Assembly: GCA_046328905.1 (NCBI GenBank)
Contig: JAXLVP010000001.1
Coordinates: 2,294,815 to 2,326,814 of the forward strand
Direction of reading: 5' to 3'
DNA length: 32,000 nucleotides
Source: Bdellovibrionota bacterium
GTDB lineage: Bacteria; Bdellovibrionota_C; UBA2361; SZUA-149; CAZDWZ01
In this document: positions 14,116 to 30,425 of the stretch, piece after piece
Position numbering within the stretch: the first letter of the stretch is position 1
Layout of the letters: each line of letters starts with the position of its first letter
Made by a program: the position numbers and the translations under genes
The notes under the pieces: model-generated
What the model was told of the DNA's origin: nothing
The model's input: only the letters and a program-made list of their open reading frames with translations
The model's database searches: none

Positions 14116-14330
14116 CCTAACTGTGCTCGTAACCGGACCTCAATACCGGGTGCCATGTTGAGCGTACCTGAGAGAGTGGGCTCGACGATAGTTCCTGACT
14201 CTGCGGTGCCAAATGAAACCCTTCCGTCCGCGCTCAATCTTCCGATTTTCGACGCTCGTTATGCGCCGAGCTGTCCATTCTCAAAAAGCGCCCTAGGGTG
14301 GGGGCTCGCAGATATGTTATCCCTGGGCGT

Positions 14331-14921
14331 ATGCGCACGCGAATCTTGCCTTCGGGCGGCCAAGGTTTGGCGGAATACATAATCATCGTTCTCGTCGTTG
14401 CACTCGTCGTGTTGGTCGCTGTACGCCTATTCGGTAAAAGTGTCGAGTGCCAGTTCTCCAATGCTGCAGGTCAGCTCGACGAAGGTTCCTACACGCCGTG
14501 CGCAACGAGCGCTCAGCAGGATCCGGAGTCGCCAGAGGCCCCGCCTCCACCACCACCTTCATCTCCCGCGCCGACGTACGCTGCGCCCCCTCCACCTCCG
14601 CCTCCTCCACCTCCTCCTCCGCCGCCGCCCCCACCACCGTCGCCGCCGCCGGCTCCTTCTCCGATAGCGTCGCCCCCTCAGTTTTGCTACGGCAACTACA
14701 CGTGGTCCGGTCCATGCAAATGGAATGGCGCTCTGTGCGAACAGCCCAGCAATAGCTACAAAGTTACCTGCAGCCCGCTCTACTCGACCAGCCCGAGCGT
14801 TGCCAATTCCGCGGGAGGCTTTTGTTACGATTTCAAAGATGCGGCATCGTGCAACTCCGCCGGCAGTCCCCCGAACTACAGCGGGTTCCAGGTAAGCGGC
14901 TGCGAGGAGTTGAGCTGTTAA
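14331..14921 (+). CDS. Flp/Fap-pilin-like N-terminus fused to polyproline linker and Cys-rich C-terminal domain
   Basis: MRTRILPSGGQGLAEYIIIVLVVALVVLVAVRLFG matches the Flp prepilin motif, a G/xxxEY cleavage region followed by a hydrophobic helix. After it come a Pro-rich tract with 18 consecutive Pro and a ~85-aa region with 8 Cys. An alternative GTG start lies at 14298. Confidence 0.65.
   Translation: MRTRILPSGGQGLAEYIIIVLVVALVVLVAVRLFGKSVECQFSNAAGQLDEGSYTPCATSAQQDPESPEAPPPPPPSSPAPTYAAPPPPPPPPPPPPPPPPPPSPPPAPSPIASPPQFCYGNYTWSGPCKWNGALCEQPSNSYKVTCSPLYSTSPSVANSAGGFCYDFKDAASCNSAGSPPNYSGFQVSGCEELSC
14541..14668 (+). repeat. CCN low-complexity tract encoding a Pro-rich linker (18 consecutive Pro codons at 14586-14639)
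   Basis: Direct reading gives PPPPPPSSPAPTYAA-P18-SPPPAPSPIASPP. The proline codons used are a mix of ccc, cct, cca and ccg. Confidence 0.95.
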
Positions 14922-20525: not shown

Positions 20526-21335
20526 ATGTTGAACAATCTGCGCAGCCGCCTGTCCGCGTCGCCCCGCGCCCGTCAGTACACGCGCGACGGCATCACCGCC
20601 GGCCTCACGGGTCTGGCGATCCTCGTCGTCCTGCCGGCGCTCTACCACTACAGCTCCGCCCGCCTGGTCGCGGGCTGGCTCGTGGTGGTCGCGATCCTGG
20701 TCATGGGTTACCTCAAGCGCGGCTCGTACGTGCCCCCCCAGCGCAACTGGTGGATCACGGCGGGCTACATCGGGGTCTTCGCCATGGCGCTCGTGACGCT
20801 CGGCTGGTTCGGCGTCCACAAGCAGCTCCCGTCGGTGCAGCAGGTCCAGTCCGCTCTGCCGGACGTACCCGCCATCCCGGCGCTCAGCTACTGGTGGGTG
20901 AAGGCCGTCGCCGGCCTGCTGGCCGTGGTCCTCGGGATCATGGCGGTGCGCGGCGCGATCCGCTCGCGCATGCGCGTCTGGCAGCTCGGCACCGCCATCG
21001 CCGTCATCGCGCTGTTCTGCGTGGCCTTCGGCTTCGTGCACTTCGGCACCGCCAGCCCCTCCTCCGACGTCGCGACCGTCGGCCAGAACCCGGATCTCCC
21101 GGGCTTCGCGGCCTACGTCTCGTGGCAGAACGAGAAGGACCCGTCGAAGCCCGTCACGCCGAAGCTCTACCGAGAGTTTCTGCGCAACGGCTCCGACGCG
21201 GACAAGAACGCCGTGCACGACCGACAGGATCAGCTGCTCGCGGATTTCGGTCTCAGGCTCGAGGACGGTCGGTTGATCGCGGTCAACCCGACCGGCGTCA
21301 CCAACCTCAAAGACCTGACCACCGCGATGCCGTAA
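20526..21335 (+). CDS. hypothetical 5-TM membrane protein with extreme GC3 (compositionally foreign)
   Basis: ATG 20526 is preceded by AGAAAGAGG. The 269-aa product has five hydrophobic helices and then a ~90-aa soluble tail. By hand count only ~15 sense codons end in A or T. The long shadow ORFs on the other frames are typical of a real high-GC gene. Confidence 0.7.
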   Translation: MLNNLRSRLSASPRARQYTRDGITAGLTGLAILVVLPALYHYSSARLVAGWLVVVAILVMGYLKRGSYVPPQRNWWITAGYIGVFAMALVTLGWFGVHKQLPSVQQVQSALPDVPAIPALSYWWVKAVAGLLAVVLGIMAVRGAIRSRMRVWQLGTAIAVIALFCVAFGFVHFGTASPSSDVATVGQNPDLPGFAAYVSWQNEKDPSKPVTPKLYREFLRNGSDADKNAVHDRQDQLLADFGLRLEDGRLIAVNPTGVTNLKDLTTAMP

Positions 21336-21530: not shown

Positions 21531-24500
21531 ATGGGGAACGGTAACGGACCAATAAGAAATCTAGTGAGTGCCATCCGTCATCGACATTGCGAACCCGCGT
21601 GTCAGCCGGTGACATGTCAACCTGTGGTCTATGAATCTGTTGTCTGCCAGCCGACGGTTCAAGTTCCCGCTTATCAACCGGCGTTGAGTCATTCCGAGCA
21701 ACTCAGTCAGAACACCCGTCGCCTTTACACCGAAGGCAAGCGCGACGCAGCCAAGACCGGGCCCGCCCCGGAAGGGACCAACCTCTACTACTTCTCTGAA
21801 GGGCAGCTCTACGACTCGAACGGCGCTCGCATCGGATCGATGGCGCTCGACCCGAAAACCTCGCTCGCCGGAAAAGATACAATTACGACTCCGGGATGGT
21901 TGCAAAACGATCGCGGTCAAAACTGGAACTTTACGCAACAGAACGGGCAGCCCGTATTCGTCGACCAATACGGGCGCGCATCGAAGGCCGAAATTCGGAT
22001 TGGCGCACCTCCCGGAATGAAGGCGACGATGGAGTACCACGTAGCCGATATCATGGTTACGGATCCTCGATACTGTCAGGGCGTTCTCTCGATCGCTCGC
22101 CATGCCGGAAACATCATCGTCTACAAACCTGCCGACCAGGTAAAGACCGAAAGCCTTGATCCAAAAGCTGTGCAGCAGCTCTTCGATTCGCGAACAGGTC
22201 GAATCGAGCTTCCGTCGTCGGGTGGGAAAAAGAGTTTCGATGTGCACCATACTGCGCAGAACGATGGGGCAGACTACGTCTACCTGATGAGCACCGATGG
22301 GACCGAACAGGTTCGGCTCTCCCGCTCTAAAGCAGATGGGACCTATCAGCTCGAACGTCAGTTACATCAGGCCAACCAATGGACCGATTGTTACGGTCGC
22401 CGCATGTACGGGAACGTCGGATGGGTGCCCGACACGAACGTTCAAATTCCAACCGCTGCGGCTCAACAGCCGGGCCGAGTTCTGCCTTCATCGCAAATAC
22501 CGGACCCGAACCCTTCCGAGGCTCCGACCCCGCAACCTCCATCGGTTCCAGTGCCCGATCCGAACGCCGGTCCGCGCCGAGAACCGCAGCCAGCGATGCC
22601 TCGGCCATCGACGGCGCCTGTTCCTGAGGAACCGCCGGCTACCGAGCCTACACCGCCGCCGGAAGTACCTCCGGCAACACCGGGTCCGCGACGTGCCAAT
22701 GTCACCGCTGATGATGGAACTCGCAGAGCGAATGTCGCCCCAGATGGCGAGCCTGACGGAGGCCGCCGGGCGAATGCTGTGCCGGATCCAACTCGAAGAG
22801 CAAACGTGGCTCCAGATCCAAGCGGTGCGGCATCGGCACAACCCGATCCTACACGCCGTGCAGTGGTCGCACCGGACTCAAGCGGTGCTGCCGCGGCGCA
22901 ACCCGATCCGACGCGCCGAGCCGTGGTGGCTCCAGACTCAAGTGGTGCTGCTGCGGCACAACCCGATCCTACACGCCGTGCAGTGGTGGCTCCGGACGCA
23001 AGCGGTAGCCCCGCGGCGCAACCCGATCCGACGCGCCGAGCCGTGGTCGCTCCGGACGCAAGTGGTGCGGCATCGGCACAACCTGATCCGACGCGACGCG
23101 CAGCGGTGGCTCCGGATGCAAGCGGTAGCGCTGCTGCACAACCCGATCCTACGCGAACGGCGGTAGTAGCGCCGGACGCGACTGGCGCAACCGCCCCGCA
23201 ACCCGATCCGACGCGCCGCGCAGCGGTGGCTCCGGATGCAAGCGGTAGCGCTGCTGCACAACCCGATCCTACGCGAACGGCGGTAGTAGCGCCTGACGCG
23301 ACGGGCGCAGCCTCCCCGCAGCCAGATCCGACACGTCGCGTAGCGGCAGCTCCAGACGCAAGCGGTAACGCCGCGGCGCAACCTGATCCTTCGCGAACGG
23401 CTGTAGTAGCGCCCGACGCGAGCGGCGCAGCCGCCCCGCAGCCAGATCCGACACGCCGCGCAGCGGTGGCTCCGGATGCTAGCGGTACTGCCGCAGCGCA
23501 ACCTGACCCAACACGACGAGCGACGGTGACTTCCGGTGCGACCGGAAACCCCGTAGCGCAGCCGGATGCTACGCGGCCCGCAGGCGTTGCACCCGATTCT
23601 CCAGCTTCAGTATCCCCGACCGAGCCACGCAGAGCACGTGTGGCTCCTGATGGCGCCGGTGAGGCGCCCGCACCGAATCCTGACGATGGTGTTCGTCCGG
23701 TTCCTCCCGCAGAAAATCGGGACGATTCGCGGCCTCGAGAGCCCGTGGATCCGACACGGGTCGCACGAGCTCGCTCAGCGCAGGTTGGCGTTACGCCTCG
23801 AACGACCGAGACCATCGAGATCCTCCCCGTCACCGGTACTCCGGTCCCAGTTACCGTTGGCCAGGGCGGACTACTGCCGATCGGGCTCGATCCCACCGGC
23901 GCGCTTACTTTTAGAGTCGCCGGGCAGCAAATTCCTCTCCGTGTCGACGCGAGAGGTACAGTGCCTCTGAGTCTCGGTCCGAATGGAGAGCTCGCAGTCG
24001 ATAGCGCAGCCGCCAGTCAATTCGTTCCTGACTTTCTCGAACGGATGTCGGCACCGTCGCAAGTGCGGCTTGGTGGCGCACCTCCGCGCCAGAACTCGGG
24101 CTTCAATTTACTCACCTCTTCCGGAAGTTCGAGGACTTTGAATCCGTTGACGCCCGATCGCGACACGCCAAGCTTATTGCTTTCCCGAGGTGGGCTCAGC
24201 TTCCAGCTTGGAGCGAACGCGCTCACGCCCGTTCAGTTTGATTCGGCGACTGGTACCTTCAGCACGGACAACCGTCCCGCTTCCGGCGCCCTGCCGATCC
24301 AACGTTCGCTGGACGTGGGATCGGTGTTCGAGATCCCGCTTCAGGTCGCCTCGGACGGCAGCATACGGATAGCGCCGACAACCGGCCGACCGCCGTTCGC
24401 GGTTGATCAATATGGTATGGTGCGGCTCCGGCTGAACCGGACGAGCCCAATCAAGGTCGGCCAAGATGGAACAGCCGCTCTCGCCGTCTCTCCATCCGGC

Positions 24501-24713
24501 TATTTGCAATTCAGGGACGCGACGATGAACCCGCCCGTGATGCGAATCATGGATACGCTCACGATCTCAGACGGGACGGCACCTGGACCGCAGACTGTTG
24601 AGAGCGCAGGCGTGGCGAGCCCGAGAAATACCGTTCCAACTGGAATTCCTGTATCGGTTGACCCAGACGGTCGCCCGCGGCTCGATCTCTCCTCGCTGGT
24701 CGTGCCGAAGTAA
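21531..24713 (+). CDS. giant hypothetical protein: Cys/Gln/Pro N-terminal motif, globular region, 20-aa tandem repeat array, Gly-punctuated beta-repeat C-terminal region
   Basis: A single open frame of 1066 codons from TTG 21513. ATG 21531 (MGNGNGPIRN...) follows an AAGGA site. There is no signal peptide or TM segment. Substitutions between repeat units fall at third codon positions of this frame, which supports it as the coding frame. No family recognised. Confidence 0.8.
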   Translation: MGNGNGPIRNLVSAIRHRHCEPACQPVTCQPVVYESVVCQPTVQVPAYQPALSHSEQLSQNTRRLYTEGKRDAAKTGPAPEGTNLYYFSEGQLYDSNGARIGSMALDPKTSLAGKDTITTPGWLQNDRGQNWNFTQQNGQPVFVDQYGRASKAEIRIGAPPGMKATMEYHVADIMVTDPRYCQGVLSIARHAGNIIVYKPADQVKTESLDPKAVQQLFDSRTGRIELPSSGGKKSFDVHHTAQNDGADYVYLMSTDGTEQVRLSRSKADGTYQLERQLHQANQWTDCYGRRMYGNVGWVPDTNVQIPTAAAQQPGRVLPSSQIPDPNPSEAPTPQPPSVPVPDPNAGPRREPQPAMPRPSTAPVPEEPPATEPTPPPEVPPATPGPRRANVTADDGTRRANVAPDGEPDGGRRANAVPDPTRRANVAPDPSGAASAQPDPTRRAVVAPDSSGAAAAQPDPTRRAVVAPDSSGAAAAQPDPTRRAVVAPDASGSPAAQPDPTRRAVVAPDASGAASAQPDPTRRAAVAPDASGSAAAQPDPTRTAVVAPDATGATAPQPDPTRRAAVAPDASGSAAAQPDPTRTAVVAPDATGAASPQPDPTRRVAAAPDASGNAAAQPDPSRTAVVAPDASGAAAPQPDPTRRAAVAPDASGTAAAQPDPTRRATVTSGATGNPVAQPDATRPAGVAPDSPASVSPTEPRRARVAPDGAGEAPAPNPDDGVRPVPPAENRDDSRPREPVDPTRVARARSAQVGVTPRTTETIEILPVTGTPVPVTVGQGGLLPIGLDPTGALTFRVAGQQIPLRVDARGTVPLSLGPNGELAVDSAAASQFVPDFLERMSAPSQVRLGGAPPRQNSGFNLLTSSGSSRTLNPLTPDRDTPSLLLSRGGLSFQLGANALTPVQFDSATGTFSTDNRPASGALPIQRSLDVGSVFEIPLQVASDGSIRIAPTTGRPPFAVDQYGMVRLRLNRTSPIKVGQDGTAALAVSPSGYLQFRDATMNPPVMRIMDTLTISDGTAPGPQTVESAGVASPRNTVPTGIPVSVDPDGRPRLDLSSLVVPK
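22782..23561 (+). repeat. 13 tandem 60-nt (20-aa) in-frame repeats, consensus PDPTRRAVVAPDASGAAAAQ, with 120-nt superperiod; degenerate copies extend to ~22684 and ~23690
   Basis: Because the listing is 60 nt per line, the repeat aligns in columns across lines 22801-23521. Units start at 22782, 22842, 22902 and so on. A ~73-nt stretch at 23101-23173 is identical to 23221-23293. Confidence 0.95.
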
Positions 24714-24939: not shown

Positions 24940-27900
24940 ATGGGTGGTCCCGCAGCGGCAACAAAATCGGAAAATCCCGGATTAGATCTATCGGCTCCGG
25001 TCCGTCAGGCACCGCCCGCCGAACGTCAACCCGCTCAGCTACGAGATGCAAGTGTCGCGCTACCCCCTTCGGCGGCAATTCAAGTTCAACTAGAAAAGGA
25101 GAAGCTTGAGCGGACGCTGGGCACACCTCGCGCCGCGGCAGTCCTCGAAGAAGCGAAACGGGCTGAGCGTGTGCTCGAAGAGATCCAACGCCAATCTGCG
25201 ATGCTCGACAAGGAGTCGCTCGCCAAGTGGAAACCGTATATCGCTTCCGCCGCTGCGAAGATGAATCAAGCATTGGCTGCGGGGGACTTTGCCGGGTTCG
25301 AGAGCCAGCTTTCCACCTTCAATAAGCATCTCGAGCGACTTCAAAAATACATGAGCTACGAGCGAACAGAAGGGCTCGTCGCCGTGCATGCCGAAAGCGG
25401 CGTGCGGATTTACAGCAAAGACGGCGCTGTTTGGCTCGTGACTCCGGACGCTCAGGCATTTGCCGATTATCGCTCTGGCGCGAAGGCCAGAGAGCTCGCT
25501 GGATTTGTGAAAGGAGTCACCGGAGTTTCACTCGATCCGAATCATGCCGTGTATCAAGCCTCCGGCCCGGCCAGAGACGGGCAGACTCTTCTTGCCTGCC
25601 GGATGGATCTCCTGAGCCTGCAGGACGGCAGAAACGAGTTCGGTGTGCGAACCACCCTTCGACGAGATTCGGGCGCGCTTTCGCAAGATATCAACTTCAC
25701 TCGAGAGCAGGTTTCCGGCGGCCGGATTGTAGCGGATGCGACTCGCGGTTTCGGGCATGCGAACGGCTTTCCGTCGATTGCGTTCAGCGCTCCTGGCGTT
25801 CAATCGGGACCTGTCGGAAATCCCGGTTCTGCAGCAGCGCAGCCGCAACAGCTTGCTGCGATTCCAGCCGGTGCGAACGGCCCGGCGCCGGTGCCAGTCA
25901 TACCCGTGTCGCGCGCCACAGCCGCACAAGAACATCCGCAGCCTGACGGGCGTGACGCCGGCGCTGCCATTCGAACCGCTACCCTTGTGACGGCGGCACT
26001 TGGGCAAAATGGCCCGAGCCCGATCACGATGACCACTTTGGCGGAGGCGGCGCAGCGTGTGAATCCGTTGCCTTATCTTGCGGGGCGCCGGGAGGCGGCT
26101 CTCGACAGAGTCATTGAGGAGACGGAGAAGCGGATTGCGAAGGATCTCAAAATTTTAAAGAAGCCCGAGGAGATCGCTGAAGGTCTGAAAGAGGCGACTG
26201 CCGGAGGAGAACGATTCGGCAGAGCATATGCGACTCGCAGAGCCGCGCTCGATGCGGAGCTCGCGAAAGCGGCCACTCCGGCAGAAAAAAGCGCGGTGCA
26301 GGTGAGAATCAATGCGCTGGAAGACCTCCGGGCCCGGGAGGTCATTTATCGTCGCGACCTCCTTGAAAGACAGGTTAGCAGCGCTACGAAGCAGAAGGAT
26401 GTGAAGCTGGCGCGCGATACGAAGCGAACCCTACTCGAGATGAAGGATGACGTCGATCGCGCTTATCAGCATCAGATTCAGAGAGCGACTGCCGACGGCA
26501 AACCGATTGATAAACTGGAAGCGGCAAGAGGGAAGTTCGCCTCAAGGTGCACAACGCTTGCAGACGAGCTTCAAACACTTCGGGGACGCCTGACCAGATG
26601 GGCCGGTGGCGGCCTTTCGTGGGTTGCCGATCATACCGGTTTGAGCGCGCTCAGCGGACGCGTTTCGTCGGCGCTGCATGTAGACATCAAGGTCAGCTCA
26701 CTTACGGGTTGGAACAGGTTCTGGGACTGGGTCGATAAGCGGCAAGCTGCTGCCGTTTCGAAGACATTGGCGGATACAGAACGCTTGCTTCAGACCGGCG
26801 TCGGCACCCTGACCGCTGACGAAGCGGCTTCACAGCTGGCTCTGATGGCGAAGAGACAGCAAACTTTCCAGTCGAGACTCGCTGTCCTCGAGGCGCAGCA
26901 GAAAGGCGGTGCTACCGGGCTCGACACAACGATTCAAGAGCTCAAAGACGGACGCGCGCGATGTGTTCTTCGCCAGAGGGAGATCCTCGAACGCCAAATT
27001 GGCGAGGCAACCGCCGCCGGCGAAGATTGCACTGCTCTGAAATCAAAGCTGTACGGCACGATGAAGCCCGAAGTGGACGAGGCTCACGCGCAGTTGAAAA
27101 TGAAGTCCAAGCCTGAAGCAACTGCCTACAATAAGGCATGCAAGGACTACGCACCGGAGCTTGAGCGTCAGCGAGTGGCAGAGCTGGTAGCCGACACGAA
27201 AACCGTCCGCGCTGCAGCTGATGCGGTTGTGAAGGCAGAAGGCTCACTGAGTAGCGCTGCAGCTGGAACGCCTGCTCACGCTGAGGCGACTGCAGAAGTT
27301 GCCCTCGCAAAAGCTCGACTCGATCTTGCGCAAAAGGACGCTCGAATCGCGCAGCTCGAGGAGAAGCTCAAGCTCAATCCGGCTGATGCTGATGCGACTG
27401 CCGAGGTTCAGCGACTCAGGGTTGATCGCGCGCGTTCAGCGACTGCGGAGCGGGCTTGCGGAGTCGAGCGGGCTTCGAAGCGGGTAGCGCGAATTGATGC
27501 CGATATTGCGGACATCGATGCGGAGCTTGCGAAACCGGACCAATCCGCAAAAGCGATTGCCGAGCTGGAGAAGCGCCGCGGTACTCTGCTTGCGGAGCAG
27601 TCAGAGCTTCGGACACAAACCGAATCTCTCGCCGATACCAAGAAACAGGCTGGCGTTGCGGTGAAGTTGGCTGACCTCGAGCAGGATCTTGCCCAACAGC
27701 GCGCAGAGCGAGCAAAAGCAACTGATCCTGCCGCCCAAAAAACCCTCGACCAGCGTATCGCTGAGTTGGAAGGAAAGCTCAGAGCAGCGAATATCGAGCT
27801 CATCAGGCGCGACCTCGCCGCGACGGAACAGAGCTTGACCCGGCTCCAGGGAGAGCTGGCGGCAGTTGACGCTGAGCTCGGGACACTCACCGGTCAAAAG

Positions 27901-29835
27901 ACGGCACGCGTTACCGAACTCGAAAAGAGCCGTCAACGTCTGCAGGGTAAGATTAAGGGAATGGAGGATACGAAGGAGTTCCTCAACGGACAGCGCGAGA
28001 TTTATTCGTTGGAGTCGAAATGCGCGAAGGCTGGAACCCAACTGGCAGCGAAGGAGGCCGCGCTTGAGACTGCAAAGAAAGCAACCACTCAGGATCCTGC
28101 ACTGATTGCCGCTCTCGAAGGCGAGGTTCAAACTCTTCGTCAAACGTCGACTACTCTTCAACAGGAGCTCACAACGGCCAGAACATCATTCCGCACAACT
28201 TGGTCAGCACGTCTTACTGCGGCGCGCGCAAACTTCGCCGAGCGGGTAATGGGGCGTGTGCAGGGTTACGCTCAGCAGCATCCGATGAAAGCCGCGACGA
28301 TTCTCGCGGTAGCGACCGAATCGCTCCGCGGCGCCGGTATGGCGGACTACGATCCCGAGACCCGGCACACCGTACTGCCTTCGCTGATCTTTCTGCTCAA
28401 TCAGGATTTCGACCAGTGGGCCTACACCACCGAACAGGTTGGAGTTCCCGGAGCGGTCGCCCTTGAAGCTGGTAGCCATGGTGGAAACGCATTGATCATG
28501 AGCGGTGGCGCATACGGGCTGTATAGAATCGGTTCGACAGCCGTAACCTCCAGAGCCGGTCAGGCGGTGGTCACGCGAATTGCCGGTTCGCGGCTTGCGC
28601 AATCCAAGTTTGTCACCTGGGCTGCTCCTAAGGTCGCAAGCTATGCCGGCCCGGCGCTTGTCGGCGTCGGCGCCGCGGCGGACGGGTATTTCACATTCGC
28701 CGACGGAAGCTTCGTCAATTTCAATGACCGTCAGGTTGCAACCGCTACGACGAGCCCAATTGTCGCTGGAGCGGTCGGAGGCGGCGTCTTCTTCGGTCCT
28801 CCCGGAGCGATCGTCGGTGCGGTCGGCGGTGCCATCGGAGAGGTCGCCGGTGTCACTCGTGGTCTCTTCGTGCTTGATGCGGAGGCTACCGCTGACTACA
28901 AAAAACGGAGTGTTCGAGAGAGCATTGAGCTTGCAGAGCAGGGATTTGTTTTCGACGCCAAGGACCCTGCCTTGAGATCACGCAGTCCTGTTCTGTCTGC
29001 TGAGGAGAAAGAGGTGATCGACGGTCACGCTCGAGTTCGCTTCTTACGGACTATTTTCAGCCGTGACCCGAACGTCGGTTTGTCGACTGAGCAGCTGAAA
29101 GCCGCCGGTTTCGTTACCGACCCGGGGAAAACACCGGAGGAGCACGAGGCCGCCGAGCGACATAATTGGGAAAGGTCGGAAGCCCTCTTTACTGCCGGTT
29201 ATTTCAGCGGTGCGCCGATCAATTCTCTCGACCCGGAGCTCCGCGGACGACTCGAACGCGAGCGAGCGGATGCTCATCGGCACTACACGGATCTCTATCA
29301 GACAAGTATGCGTCGCACGTACACCGAATTCAACAAGACCAGCACGCCGGCTGTGGCAGCTTGGGACATTTTAAACACCTACACATTCGGTTGGACTGGC
29401 CCCGGGGGACGTGGGGATCAGGGAGGAGTAGCTATCTCTTCCGAATTTCATGATCGTCTTGCAGTGGTCGCAAAAGAGTTTGCTGAAAAGTTTGGTACCC
29501 GAGACTCGGCAGCAGTCGGGGAAGACCGGGCCGCGCTTGCGGAAGAACAGTGGGGATTTCTCGCGAGCAGGTTCCCTCAGATCGGTCTCATTTTCTCAGA
29601 TACGGAAGCTCGCAGACTCTTCGTTAACGGTTTCTCGATGCTCGCGGGAGAAAAGGGAAAACAATTGGAGGATTACGCGTTGATGAGCGATATCGATCGA
29701 TGCGCCACGGGGGTTGCCATCCTGAGAAACTCCCGCGATGACTTCGCAGTGCAGGTTCAACACCGGCTCGCGCGTGGGCTGACTGACGATCTCGCAGACG
29801 GAGCCGTTCTTGATCAGTTACTCGGTACCAACTAA
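24940..29835 (+). CDS. giant hypothetical coiled-coil protein with glycine-zipper-like hydrophobic module and unassigned C-terminal domain
   Basis: The open frame runs from ATG 24850 (1661 aa). I prefer ATG 24940 (MGGPAAATKSE...) because GAGG lies 5 nt upstream and the first 30 codons look non-coding. About 26070-28250 is heptad-like and rich in A/E/K/L/R/Q. 28440-28885 is Gly/Ala/Val-rich and hydrophobic. No family recognised. Confidence 0.8.
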   Translation: MGGPAAATKSENPGLDLSAPVRQAPPAERQPAQLRDASVALPPSAAIQVQLEKEKLERTLGTPRAAAVLEEAKRAERVLEEIQRQSAMLDKESLAKWKPYIASAAAKMNQALAAGDFAGFESQLSTFNKHLERLQKYMSYERTEGLVAVHAESGVRIYSKDGAVWLVTPDAQAFADYRSGAKARELAGFVKGVTGVSLDPNHAVYQASGPARDGQTLLACRMDLLSLQDGRNEFGVRTTLRRDSGALSQDINFTREQVSGGRIVADATRGFGHANGFPSIAFSAPGVQSGPVGNPGSAAAQPQQLAAIPAGANGPAPVPVIPVSRATAAQEHPQPDGRDAGAAIRTATLVTAALGQNGPSPITMTTLAEAAQRVNPLPYLAGRREAALDRVIEETEKRIAKDLKILKKPEEIAEGLKEATAGGERFGRAYATRRAALDAELAKAATPAEKSAVQVRINALEDLRAREVIYRRDLLERQVSSATKQKDVKLARDTKRTLLEMKDDVDRAYQHQIQRATADGKPIDKLEAARGKFASRCTTLADELQTLRGRLTRWAGGGLSWVADHTGLSALSGRVSSALHVDIKVSSLTGWNRFWDWVDKRQAAAVSKTLADTERLLQTGVGTLTADEAASQLALMAKRQQTFQSRLAVLEAQQKGGATGLDTTIQELKDGRARCVLRQREILERQIGEATAAGEDCTALKSKLYGTMKPEVDEAHAQLKMKSKPEATAYNKACKDYAPELERQRVAELVADTKTVRAAADAVVKAEGSLSSAAAGTPAHAEATAEVALAKARLDLAQKDARIAQLEEKLKLNPADADATAEVQRLRVDRARSATAERACGVERASKRVARIDADIADIDAELAKPDQSAKAIAELEKRRGTLLAEQSELRTQTESLADTKKQAGVAVKLADLEQDLAQQRAERAKATDPAAQKTLDQRIAELEGKLRAANIELIRRDLAATEQSLTRLQGELAAVDAELGTLTGQKTARVTELEKSRQRLQGKIKGMEDTKEFLNGQREIYSLESKCAKAGTQLAAKEAALETAKKATTQDPALIAALEGEVQTLRQTSTTLQQELTTARTSFRTTWSARLTAARANFAERVMGRVQGYAQQHPMKAATILAVATESLRGAGMADYDPETRHTVLPSLIFLLNQDFDQWAYTTEQVGVPGAVALEAGSHGGNALIMSGGAYGLYRIGSTAVTSRAGQAVVTRIAGSRLAQSKFVTWAAPKVASYAGPALVGVGAAADGYFTFADGSFVNFNDRQVATATTSPIVAGAVGGGVFFGPPGAIVGAVGGAIGEVAGVTRGLFVLDAEATADYKKRSVRESIELAEQGFVFDAKDPALRSRSPVLSAEEKEVIDGHARVRFLRTIFSRDPNVGLSTEQLKAAGFVTDPGKTPEEHEAAERHNWERSEALFTAGYFSGAPINSLDPELRGRLERERADAHRHYTDLYQTSMRRTYTEFNKTSTPAVAAWDILNTYTFGWTGPGGRGDQGGVAISSEFHDRLAVVAKEFAEKFGTRDSAAVGEDRAALAEEQWGFLASRFPQIGLIFSDTEARRLFVNGFSMLAGEKGKQLEDYALMSDIDRCATGVAILRNSRDDFAVQVQHRLARGLTDDLADGAVLDQLLGTN

Positions 29836-29870: not shown

Positions 29871-30425
29871 GTGGAAGAAATCGACACCCGCGACGAATCG
29901 CTGAGTAGTGATAACACCCGCTCCCTCTTCTGGGGCTTGAGCTGCTTTGCGATGCTCGTCCCCACGCTCGCAATGGTATTTGCCTGGCTCTACGCCTCGT
30001 ACATGGAGATCTCTTTCAGCAAACACCAGATCAAAGAGATGGTCTTCGCGACATGGGGAATAACCCTCGCTGGGTTACTCCTCTTTGGTTTTTTCAACCG
30101 TCGCGGCGCCGGAAGGAGGCGTTCGGATCCGTCTGATATTATGCACGCGAGTGCTGCCGAGCTGACCGCAACGAAATGGGAGCAGCGAAAGGCGACCCGG
30201 CTCTTCGTTCGGTCCTACCTTGTCTCGTTGATGCTTCCCTGGGCAGGAATCGCCCTGGCACTTATCCCGCTTGTGGCAATGCACACTCCGTTCGGTCATC
30301 GAGAGGCAGTGCTTGTCTTGCAGATCTACGGAATCTCGGCGGCAGTGCTTGTCGTACGGGCGGCCATCCGGTCGCGTGGCGAGCGGATGGTGTATCTTTC
30401 CACCCCTGAAGGCTTGAAAAGCTAA
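29871..30425 (+). CDS. hypothetical 4-TM membrane protein immediately downstream of the giant coiled-coil gene
   Basis: 184 aa. GTG start with AAGGA 7 nt upstream, 35 nt after the giant ORF stop. It has four hydrophobic helices and a basic loop, RRGAGRRRSD. No family recognised. Confidence 0.6.
   Translation: MEEIDTRDESLSSDNTRSLFWGLSCFAMLVPTLAMVFAWLYASYMEISFSKHQIKEMVFATWGITLAGLLLFGFFNRRGAGRRRSDPSDIMHASAAELTATKWEQRKATRLFVRSYLVSLMLPWAGIALALIPLVAMHTPFGHREAVLVLQIYGISAAVLVVRAAIRSRGERMVYLSTPEGLKS

Follow-up and report, generated by a model that had tools for sequence, protein, structure and literature searches.

A giant modular protein with a conserved glycine-zipper hairpin in an uncultured Bdellovibrionota bacterium: a candidate membrane tether or effector

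What kind of protein is a chain of 1631 amino acids (aa) that Pfam, NCBIfam and PHROGs leave without a family, encoded in an uncultured bacterium known only from wastewater metagenomes? The question is raised by a gene in a 32,000-nucleotide (nt) stretch of Bdellovibrionota DNA (GenBank assembly GCA_046328905.1, contig JAXLVP010000001.1, positions 2,294,815 to 2,326,814 of the forward strand), which at its full length is called the window below. The product of this gene, the giant protein, is built around a glycine-zipper hairpin that is sharply conserved in a small family of relatives, and it is read here, with a probability of about 0.4, as a Sec-independent, exported, membrane-inserting tether or effector. 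Residue numbers are those of the database gene call P0004. The gene, the parts of its product and the downstream gene that serves for comparison are as follows.

24940..29835 (stop codon included), + strand: gene for the 1631-aa protein P0004 (open reading frame, GAGG site, database gene call, strain variants).
24940..25074, + strand: polar N-terminus starting Met-Gly, aa 1-45, with no hydrophobic window and likely disordered.
25078..25791, + strand: N-terminal domain of type A, aa ~47-284, a three-helix bundle and a beta-sandwich (AlphaFold2 (AF2) predicted local distance difference test (pLDDT) ~88).
25792..26124, + strand: Pro/Ala/Gly-rich low-complexity linker, aa ~285-395 (composition; AF2 pLDDT <50 where modelled).
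26218..26496, + strand: helical repeat module, copy 1, aa 427-519 (BLASTP and hidden Markov model (HMM) tests).
26857..27117, + strand: helical repeat module, copy 2, aa 640-726 (BLASTP and an HMM made from copy 1 only).
27268..28233, + strand: heptad-rich helical spacer and candidate coiled coil, aa 777-1098 (heptad scan, noise match to an SMC coiled coil).
28282..28884, + strand: Gly/Ala-rich, weakly hydrophobic module, aa 1115-1315 (composition and hydropathy; kept in 28 relatives; AF2 helices at pLDDT ~60).
28753..28875, + strand: helical hairpin with a glycine zipper and a Pro-Pro-Gly turn, aa 1272-1312 (alignment A1, in which the glycines are invariant; AF2).
28885..29832, + strand: C-terminal domain, aa 1316-1631, mostly alpha-helical with two short strands (conserved; AF2 pLDDT ~90).
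29871..30425, + strand: downstream gene for a 184-aa protein with four hydrophobic helices, the four-transmembrane (4-TM) protein (translation, hydropathy).

The gene is real, and its frame is translated and under purifying selection. In the list of open reading frames, this + strand frame runs without interruption between 24850 and 29835. Translation probably begins at the ATG at 24940, which has a GAGG ribosome site 5 nt 5' of it and is also the start of P0004, the sole database copy. A search for RNA runs found none listed. The initial annotation of this DNA had begun the protein at the same ATG and had given it 1630 aa; the start stands, and the length is corrected to the 1631 aa of the database call. 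The same sequence is present in contigs from at least 10 wastewater, sludge and bioreactor studies. When the reads of four runs, from four independent studies, were compared with the window, strain variants were found in two of them and indels in none; the 40 variants listed comprise 34 synonymous and 6 non-synonymous changes and 0 indels, and it is on this excess that translation and purifying selection are concluded. It was also observed that 23 of the 40 variants, mostly synonymous, crowd into 26418-26871, in the interval between the two modules and at the beginning of copy 2; recombination between strains may be the cause.

The protein has no annotated relative. Pfam and PDB sequence profiles gave no match, NCBIfam returned sub-threshold coiled-coil noise only, PHROGs matched neither the whole protein nor either half, and a word-indexed search of 5.8 billion proteins recovered the protein itself as the only match. 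Relatives came to light when 1.84 billion representatives were scanned exhaustively by HMMER with the last 482 residues as the query: 33 proteins of 137-1873 aa, each of this same type. Among 28 aligned relatives no column is invariant except those of the zipper glycines and of the glycines in the first turn that follows (G1289, G1293, G1335), and the Gly/Ala/Val module with its terminal zipper is the best-conserved part of the family. Short members (800-1200 aa) are without the repeat modules and the coiled coil and have Pro/Ala/Thr/Ser-rich linkers in their place; many relatives carry a different, beta-rich N-terminal domain, so that at least two unrelated head types exist. Because the short members lose repeats and coiled coil and the heads differ, the comparison shows a constant core, consisting of the Gly/Ala-rich helical module with its terminal zipper helix-turn-helix and a helical tail domain of ~315 aa, an interchangeable head, and a middle that acts as a spacer and is made either of repeats plus ~320 aa of heptad-rich helix or of a low-complexity linker.

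The distribution of the family was determined by six-frame genome searches, with 124 species genomes as the phylum set. Within the order, 12 of 31 genomes carry it: all six of family f10, five of the six of family f13, and the genome of the window. The window's taxonomic family is represented by two further genomes, and this search matched neither. In the rest of the phylum 7 of 93 genomes were positive, six of them in one genus and the seventh by a marginal match (E = 2.8e-6), and one genome, G023, holds several copies. The family is thus small, lineage-restricted, patchy within one small phylum and unannotated.

The two folded ends of the giant protein are isolated as well. In the type A N-terminal domain the motifs V-R-x-Y, P-D-x-x-A-F and C-R-x-D are invariant among nine relatives (alignment A3); nothing significant was found for this domain by Foldseek against the PDB or by a PDB profile search, the weak Foldseek matches being to Ig-like, NEAT and gamma-adaptin ear (GAE) domains at E >= 0.026 and template-modelling (TM) scores <= 0.39. 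For the C-terminal domain the best Foldseek E-values were 0.22 (PDB) and 0.35 (BFVD) at a TM-score of ~0.1, which amounts to no structural relative, and a PDB profile search returned nothing. No Sec signal peptide was found in the whole protein. Most of the architecture described in the initial annotation is borne out by these results: the first ~390 aa, said to be mixed globular and Pro/Ala-rich, resolve into an AF2 fold at ~47-285 and a Pro/Ala/Gly-rich stretch at ~285-395; the segment 28440-28885, described as Gly/Ala/Val-rich with GxxxG spacing, is so and is the most conserved of the family; and the last region, in which no motif had been recognised, is a conserved domain of ~315 aa at pLDDT ~90 that Foldseek likewise leaves without a match.

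The helical middle had been described in the same source as almost uninterrupted A/E/K/L/R/Q-rich helix, suited to a coiled coil and containing a duplicated module of ~210 aa. The composition of residues ~390 to ~1100 agrees with this description, as does a crude heptad scan of our own with shuffled controls, in which periodicity exceeded the 99th percentile of shuffles over 351 residues (514-557, 777-904 and 920-1098); hence, the region is compatible with a coiled coil. A structural maintenance of chromosomes (SMC) or cytoskeletal ATPase was tried as a candidate and rejected: TIGR02168 scored 23.8 bits, where its cut-off is 567, and covered only coiled-coil residues 861-1138 of P0001, and no Pfam SMC_N or hinge domain was found. 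Nothing beyond such coiled-coil noise was thus recovered of the SMC or cytoskeletal relationship that the initial annotation had set against its own membrane reading. The duplicated segments share 27 of 80 positions (BLASTP, E = 1e-5), so the paralogy holds, although not as a ~210-aa unit: the repeat unit is ~90 aa long, and 213 aa is the spacing. In a non-circular test, an HMM trained on the copy 1 sequences of 11 other family members alone gave 39 bits for copy 1 of P0004 (427-519) and 26 bits for copy 2 (640-724); the highest score among 1000 composition-matched shuffles was 12.3 bits, and the remaining helical region stayed at <2 bits. With an iterated profile, 11 of 13 long relatives proved to carry two copies at corresponding positions, or three in the case of P0008. 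Since the copy-1 model separates the copies from shuffles and the copies recur across the long relatives, the duplication is, on sequence grounds, real and old.

The hairpin is the candidate membrane element. AF2 models a helix at 1263-1285, a turn, and a second helix at 1287-1333 that runs into the C-terminal domain. The zipper glycines stand at GxxxG spacing with variable hydrophobic residues between them, and over a stretch of ~30 residues the non-glycine positions are hydrophobic and uncharged in 28 diverged relatives; a mostly conserved Glu lies inside the second zipper helix. The only Pfam matches of the hairpin, all sub-threshold, were to C19orf12, Bacteriocin_IIc, Gly-zipper_Omp, MccV and RTX. 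The best scores across ten family members stayed below the cut-offs of the glycine-zipper families: 13.8 bits for Gly-zipper_Omp (PF13488; cut-off 25), 11.4 for YMGG (PF13441; 28.9) and 16.2 for C19orf12 (PF20721; 30). The likeness to such families (PF13488 as in SlyB/PCP, PF20721, PF10439, MccV, the RTX N-terminal region) thus consists in GxxxG or GxxxGxxxG spacing with small and hydrophobic residues between; in contrast, the matches of the giant protein lie far under the gathering scores (7-18 versus 25-30 bits), and these families are small proteins or peptides, whereas here the zipper sits within a 1631-aa modular protein with a conserved tail of its own. Language-model features in the ESM Atlas point to membrane-insertive helices, with scores <0.9 that make them a lead only. 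A membrane-active anchor is the most economical reading of the hairpin because the zipper is conserved, a helix-turn-helix is predicted, the near-matches are to zipper families, a Sec signal is missing and there is no SMC or cytoskeletal match. The membrane-inserting protein of the initial annotation survives in part: the conserved zipper and the predicted helix-turn-helix speak for it and make a membrane-engaging zipper plausible, while insertion or pore formation by a hairpin of such marginal hydrophobicity may at most be proposed.

On the reading favoured here, that of an exported tether or effector, the hairpin would be the membrane-engaging element, in which the zipper glycines would pack helix on helix and the variable hydrophobic positions would face lipid or a partner. 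The spacer would keep the binding domain tens of nanometres off the membrane. The protein would probably leave the producer by a Sec-independent route, for which a divergent apparatus resembling a needleless type III secretion system (T3SS), beside Tad pilus genes, is the candidate, and would insert in the membrane of a target cell as a tether or a membrane-perturbing effector. Export and insertion into a target membrane are suggested because there is no signal peptide, the hairpin is too weakly hydrophobic for the signal recognition particle (SRP) and Sec, and the family shows swapped heads and, in G023, extra copies. This reading is favoured over a resident scaffold and over a soluble helical protein; a toxin-immunity pair and a tape-measure protein are unlikely.

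The closest parallels would be the transmembrane substrates of T3SS and type IV secretion systems (T4SS), such as SipB/IpaB/YopB, Tir, SseF, SteD and the chlamydial Inc proteins. The giant protein resembles them in the missing Sec signal, the polar N-terminus, the helical or coiled-coil regions and the hairpin of reduced hydrophobicity, and its genome likewise carries T3SS-type export genes. Reduced hydrophobicity is the principle by which secreted transmembrane substrates escape SRP targeting, and T3SS and T4SS transmembrane effectors are reported to be of intermediate hydrophobicity, with a minimal apparent free energy of insertion (dGapp) of about -3 to +2 kcal/mol (PMC6110835). The giant protein differs in having no sequence or fold similarity to these substrates, in being two to four times larger, in being encoded outside a secretion locus with no chaperone gene beside it, and in its apparently less hydrophobic hairpin; export may be proposed by analogy. 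As for T3SS translocators of the SctE/SctB class, none of the translocator families in Pfam or NCBIfam reached E <= 0.1, and an HrpK1 cluster came up merely among the weak language-model neighbours (0.52-0.72). A T3SS locus and a class II TPR chaperone, the context of such translocators, were not found around the gene; the genome has its T3SS-like loci at other places.

The genome of the window (G000) measures 5.15 Mb in three contigs, with the window on the 3.26-Mb contig C1. VirB4 was not found in it. It encodes three FHIPEP paralogues, one of which is a true FlhA above the equivalog cut-off; the other two are divergent and SctV-like, each with an SctJ-like gene. On contig C2, the locus at 311000-330000 (C2:311000-330000) holds SctR-, SctQ- and SctJ-like genes, two FHA/YscD-like genes, a Ser/Thr kinase gene and an SctV-like gene, and directly adjoins Tad genes (two T2SSF genes, TadB/C-like; a T2SSE ATPase; RcpC/CpaB); all of the T3SS matches there are below the NCBIfam equivalog cut-offs. 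The second SctV-like gene, with the SctJ-like gene nearby, is at C1:1385000-1404000. Since nearly all of the 124 phylum genomes contain three FHIPEP paralogues, two T3SS-type export gates of a non-flagellar kind seem to be the rule in this lineage.

The arrangement on C2 is reminiscent of the Kil Tad pilus and needleless T3SS* of Myxococcus xanthus, the effectors of which are unidentified (PMC12075869). The window's genome is alike in having SctR/Q/J/D/V-like genes beside a Tad ATPase, TadB/C-like and RcpC genes. Because the Kil/T3SS* effectors have yet to be identified, an orphan, Sec-less, membrane-active family would by analogy be a plausible candidate cargo for a system of this type; that the apparatus is the export route of the giant family is a conjecture. 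The likeness is one of gene context alone, and it differs in two respects: the giant gene is far from the apparatus, and the apparatus is near-universal in the phylum whereas the family is patchy. The fuller proposal, in which the family would be cargo of a needleless T3SS*/Tad machinery for contact-dependent predation, with the zipper in the prey or host membrane, the heads setting target specificity and the tail active or docking, is accordingly regarded as something of a long shot.

Several results weigh against an exported, membrane-inserting protein. The AF2 confidence at the hairpin is ~60. Its Kyte-Doolittle profile peaks at 1.64, a borderline value, with a single 19-aa window above 1.4. 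On a crude insertion scale, without position or length terms, the 19-residue sum is +5.9 to +6.6 kcal/mol, where the four helices of the adjacent 4-TM protein give -0.7 to +3 kcal/mol; taken at face value, this would put the hairpin above the energies reported for transmembrane effectors and so on the less hydrophobic side of them. With this energy and the conserved Glu, the hairpin may not span a bilayer. A homodimer prediction for residues 777-1100 gave no support. There is no secretion locus at or near the gene and no adjacent chaperone gene: the nearer T3SS-like set (on C1) is ~0.9 Mb away and the Tad-linked set is on a different contig. The FHIPEP paralogues, present in nearly every genome of the phylum, do not track the patchy family. 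Finally, residues 1100-1631 modelled in complex with the 4-TM protein scored 0.16, where the mark is 0.34, which is no support, although not evidence against binding.

An unlikely alternative, yet one that deserves weight, is a resident scaffold or tether, in which the hairpin would sit in the producer's own inner membrane, both ends would be cytoplasmic and the spacer would position the head at, for instance, a cell pole or the machinery of motility or predation. The missing signal peptide and a helical hairpin that leaves both termini on one side would fit, as would the housekeeping neighbours, the lack of adjacent secretion genes and the purifying selection within the species; long coiled-coil scaffolds are, moreover, common in bacteria. 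However, the family is patchy and missing from the two other genomes of the window's taxonomic family, swaps its heads and loses the coiled coil in short members, all of which is unusual for a core structural protein, and the hairpin falls far short of the hydrophobicity of the transmembrane helices in the neighbouring protein.

That same weak hydrophobicity, with the Glu in the second helix, is what a soluble helical protein would predict, the Gly/Ala segment then being a small-residue interface between helices of a soluble bundle or filament; AF2 also extends the second zipper helix straight into the folded C-terminal domain. This is judged distinctly improbable, in that the non-glycine positions are uniformly hydrophobic and uncharged across the relatives, the nearest sub-threshold matches are all to membrane glycine-zipper families, and the confidence of the segment is low, unlike that of the adjacent globular domain.

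VasX, Tse4 and Ssp6 are membrane-disrupting effectors of type VI secretion systems (T6SS) with small membrane immunity proteins, and a toxin-immunity pair of this kind would have the giant protein as a zipper pore-forming toxin and the 4-TM gene as its immunity gene. The giant protein shares with such effectors a glycine-zipper or colicin-like membrane-active region and, in the window, a small multi-TM gene immediately downstream, 35 nt away on the same strand with no + strand terminator-like site in the gap; a VasX_N cluster is among its weak language-model neighbours, and the complex prediction mentioned above placed contacts, unsupported, on the zipper and on TM3/TM4 (0.16 as against 0.00 in controls). 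On the other side, the T6SS sheath gene VipB/TssC (PF05943) was not found in the window's genome or in four other family-bearing genomes (an E. coli control was positive), and a MIX, PAAR or VgrG context is missing. Homologues of the 4-TM protein occur in family f13 and in G001 on contigs other than that of the giant gene, and at 10 homologous loci there was no conserved neighbour and no small multi-TM gene downstream. The partner or immunity role proposed earlier for the 4-TM protein is therefore not supported, in view of the separate contigs, the 0 of 10 loci with such a neighbour and the low complex score; the giant gene is a stand-alone gene, and a pair of this kind is highly unlikely.

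A tape-measure-like protein of a phage or contractile-injection system, left behind in the chromosome, is hardly credible: tape-measure proteins are long and helical, often with Gly-rich hydrophobic segments, and eCIS_core clusters are among the weak language-model neighbours of the N-terminal part (0.43-0.46), but there is no PHROG match, no BFVD structural match and no phage or tail gene among the neighbours here or at 10 homologous loci.

The long-shot proposal of a predation cargo has a variant that concerns the first residues of the protein. Of ~30 relatives whose N-terminus is complete, at least 12 start with Met-Gly, across different head types (P0013, P0018, P0019, P0022, P0024, P0025, P0030, P0031, the G011, G089 and G024 loci, and the window at 24940). 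Gly is the second residue in 4.9% of the proteins of the window's genome (crude gene calls), so that Met-Gly is about eight-fold over-represented (binomial p = 7e-9, though the relatives are not independent). Cys or basic residues often follow closely, and some starts (MGNFCS, MGC) resemble eukaryotic acylation signals; Met-Gly, with Cys in some, could then be an acylation signal used inside eukaryotic hosts. Arg follows Met-Gly in about half of these starts, and N-myristoyltransferase disfavours Arg at this place; the starts thus fit eukaryotic myristoylation rules only partly. Met-Gly giants as a genome-wide class were also considered and rejected, the other two such proteins of >1000 aa being a glycosyltransferase and an M11 protease.

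The family is compact and well delimited, with two confidently folded domains without detectable relatives, a sharply conserved zipper and modular evolution. If exported, it would give a handle on the cargo of the needleless T3SS-like systems of predatory bacteria, at present unidentified even in Myxococcus; if a resident scaffold, it would represent a novel type of bacterial tether, anchored by a hairpin. On both readings the family merits definition.

The genes around the giant gene are of a housekeeping kind. They encode AtuA, a pyrophosphatase, a branched-chain amino-acid ABC transporter, a transglycosylase and a nitrilase-type hydrolase, and further an adenine deaminase, an EVE-domain protein and an aminotransferase. 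In G001 and G002, the nearest family-bearing genomes, the flanking genes are on different contigs. Upstream of the giant gene lies a second large orphan.

21531..24713, + strand: upstream 1060-aa orphan protein P0002 with 60/120-nt tandem repeats and a Met-Gly start (translation, repeat finding).

P0002 has a Cys-rich start, repeats that encode Pro/Asp/Ala-rich units of 20 aa, and a beta-rich C-terminal part. A search of 40 related genomes yielded no homologue, and P0002 shows no resemblance to the giant family; one weak paralogue is present on contig C2. The two large genes are flanked by genes for membrane proteins, at 20526-21335 and 29871-30425, which have in common a short VR-x-AIRSR stretch after a hydrophobic helix and otherwise show no significant similarity (BLASTP, E = 1.3). 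Elsewhere in the window, a 207-aa protein at 14298-14921 gave a weak match to a class-III (Flp/archaeal-type) signal, with 17.6 bits. A long proline run and a Cys-rich end had been noticed in it by an earlier reader; one possibility is a pilin that carries a variable 'tip' domain like those described for Kil pili.

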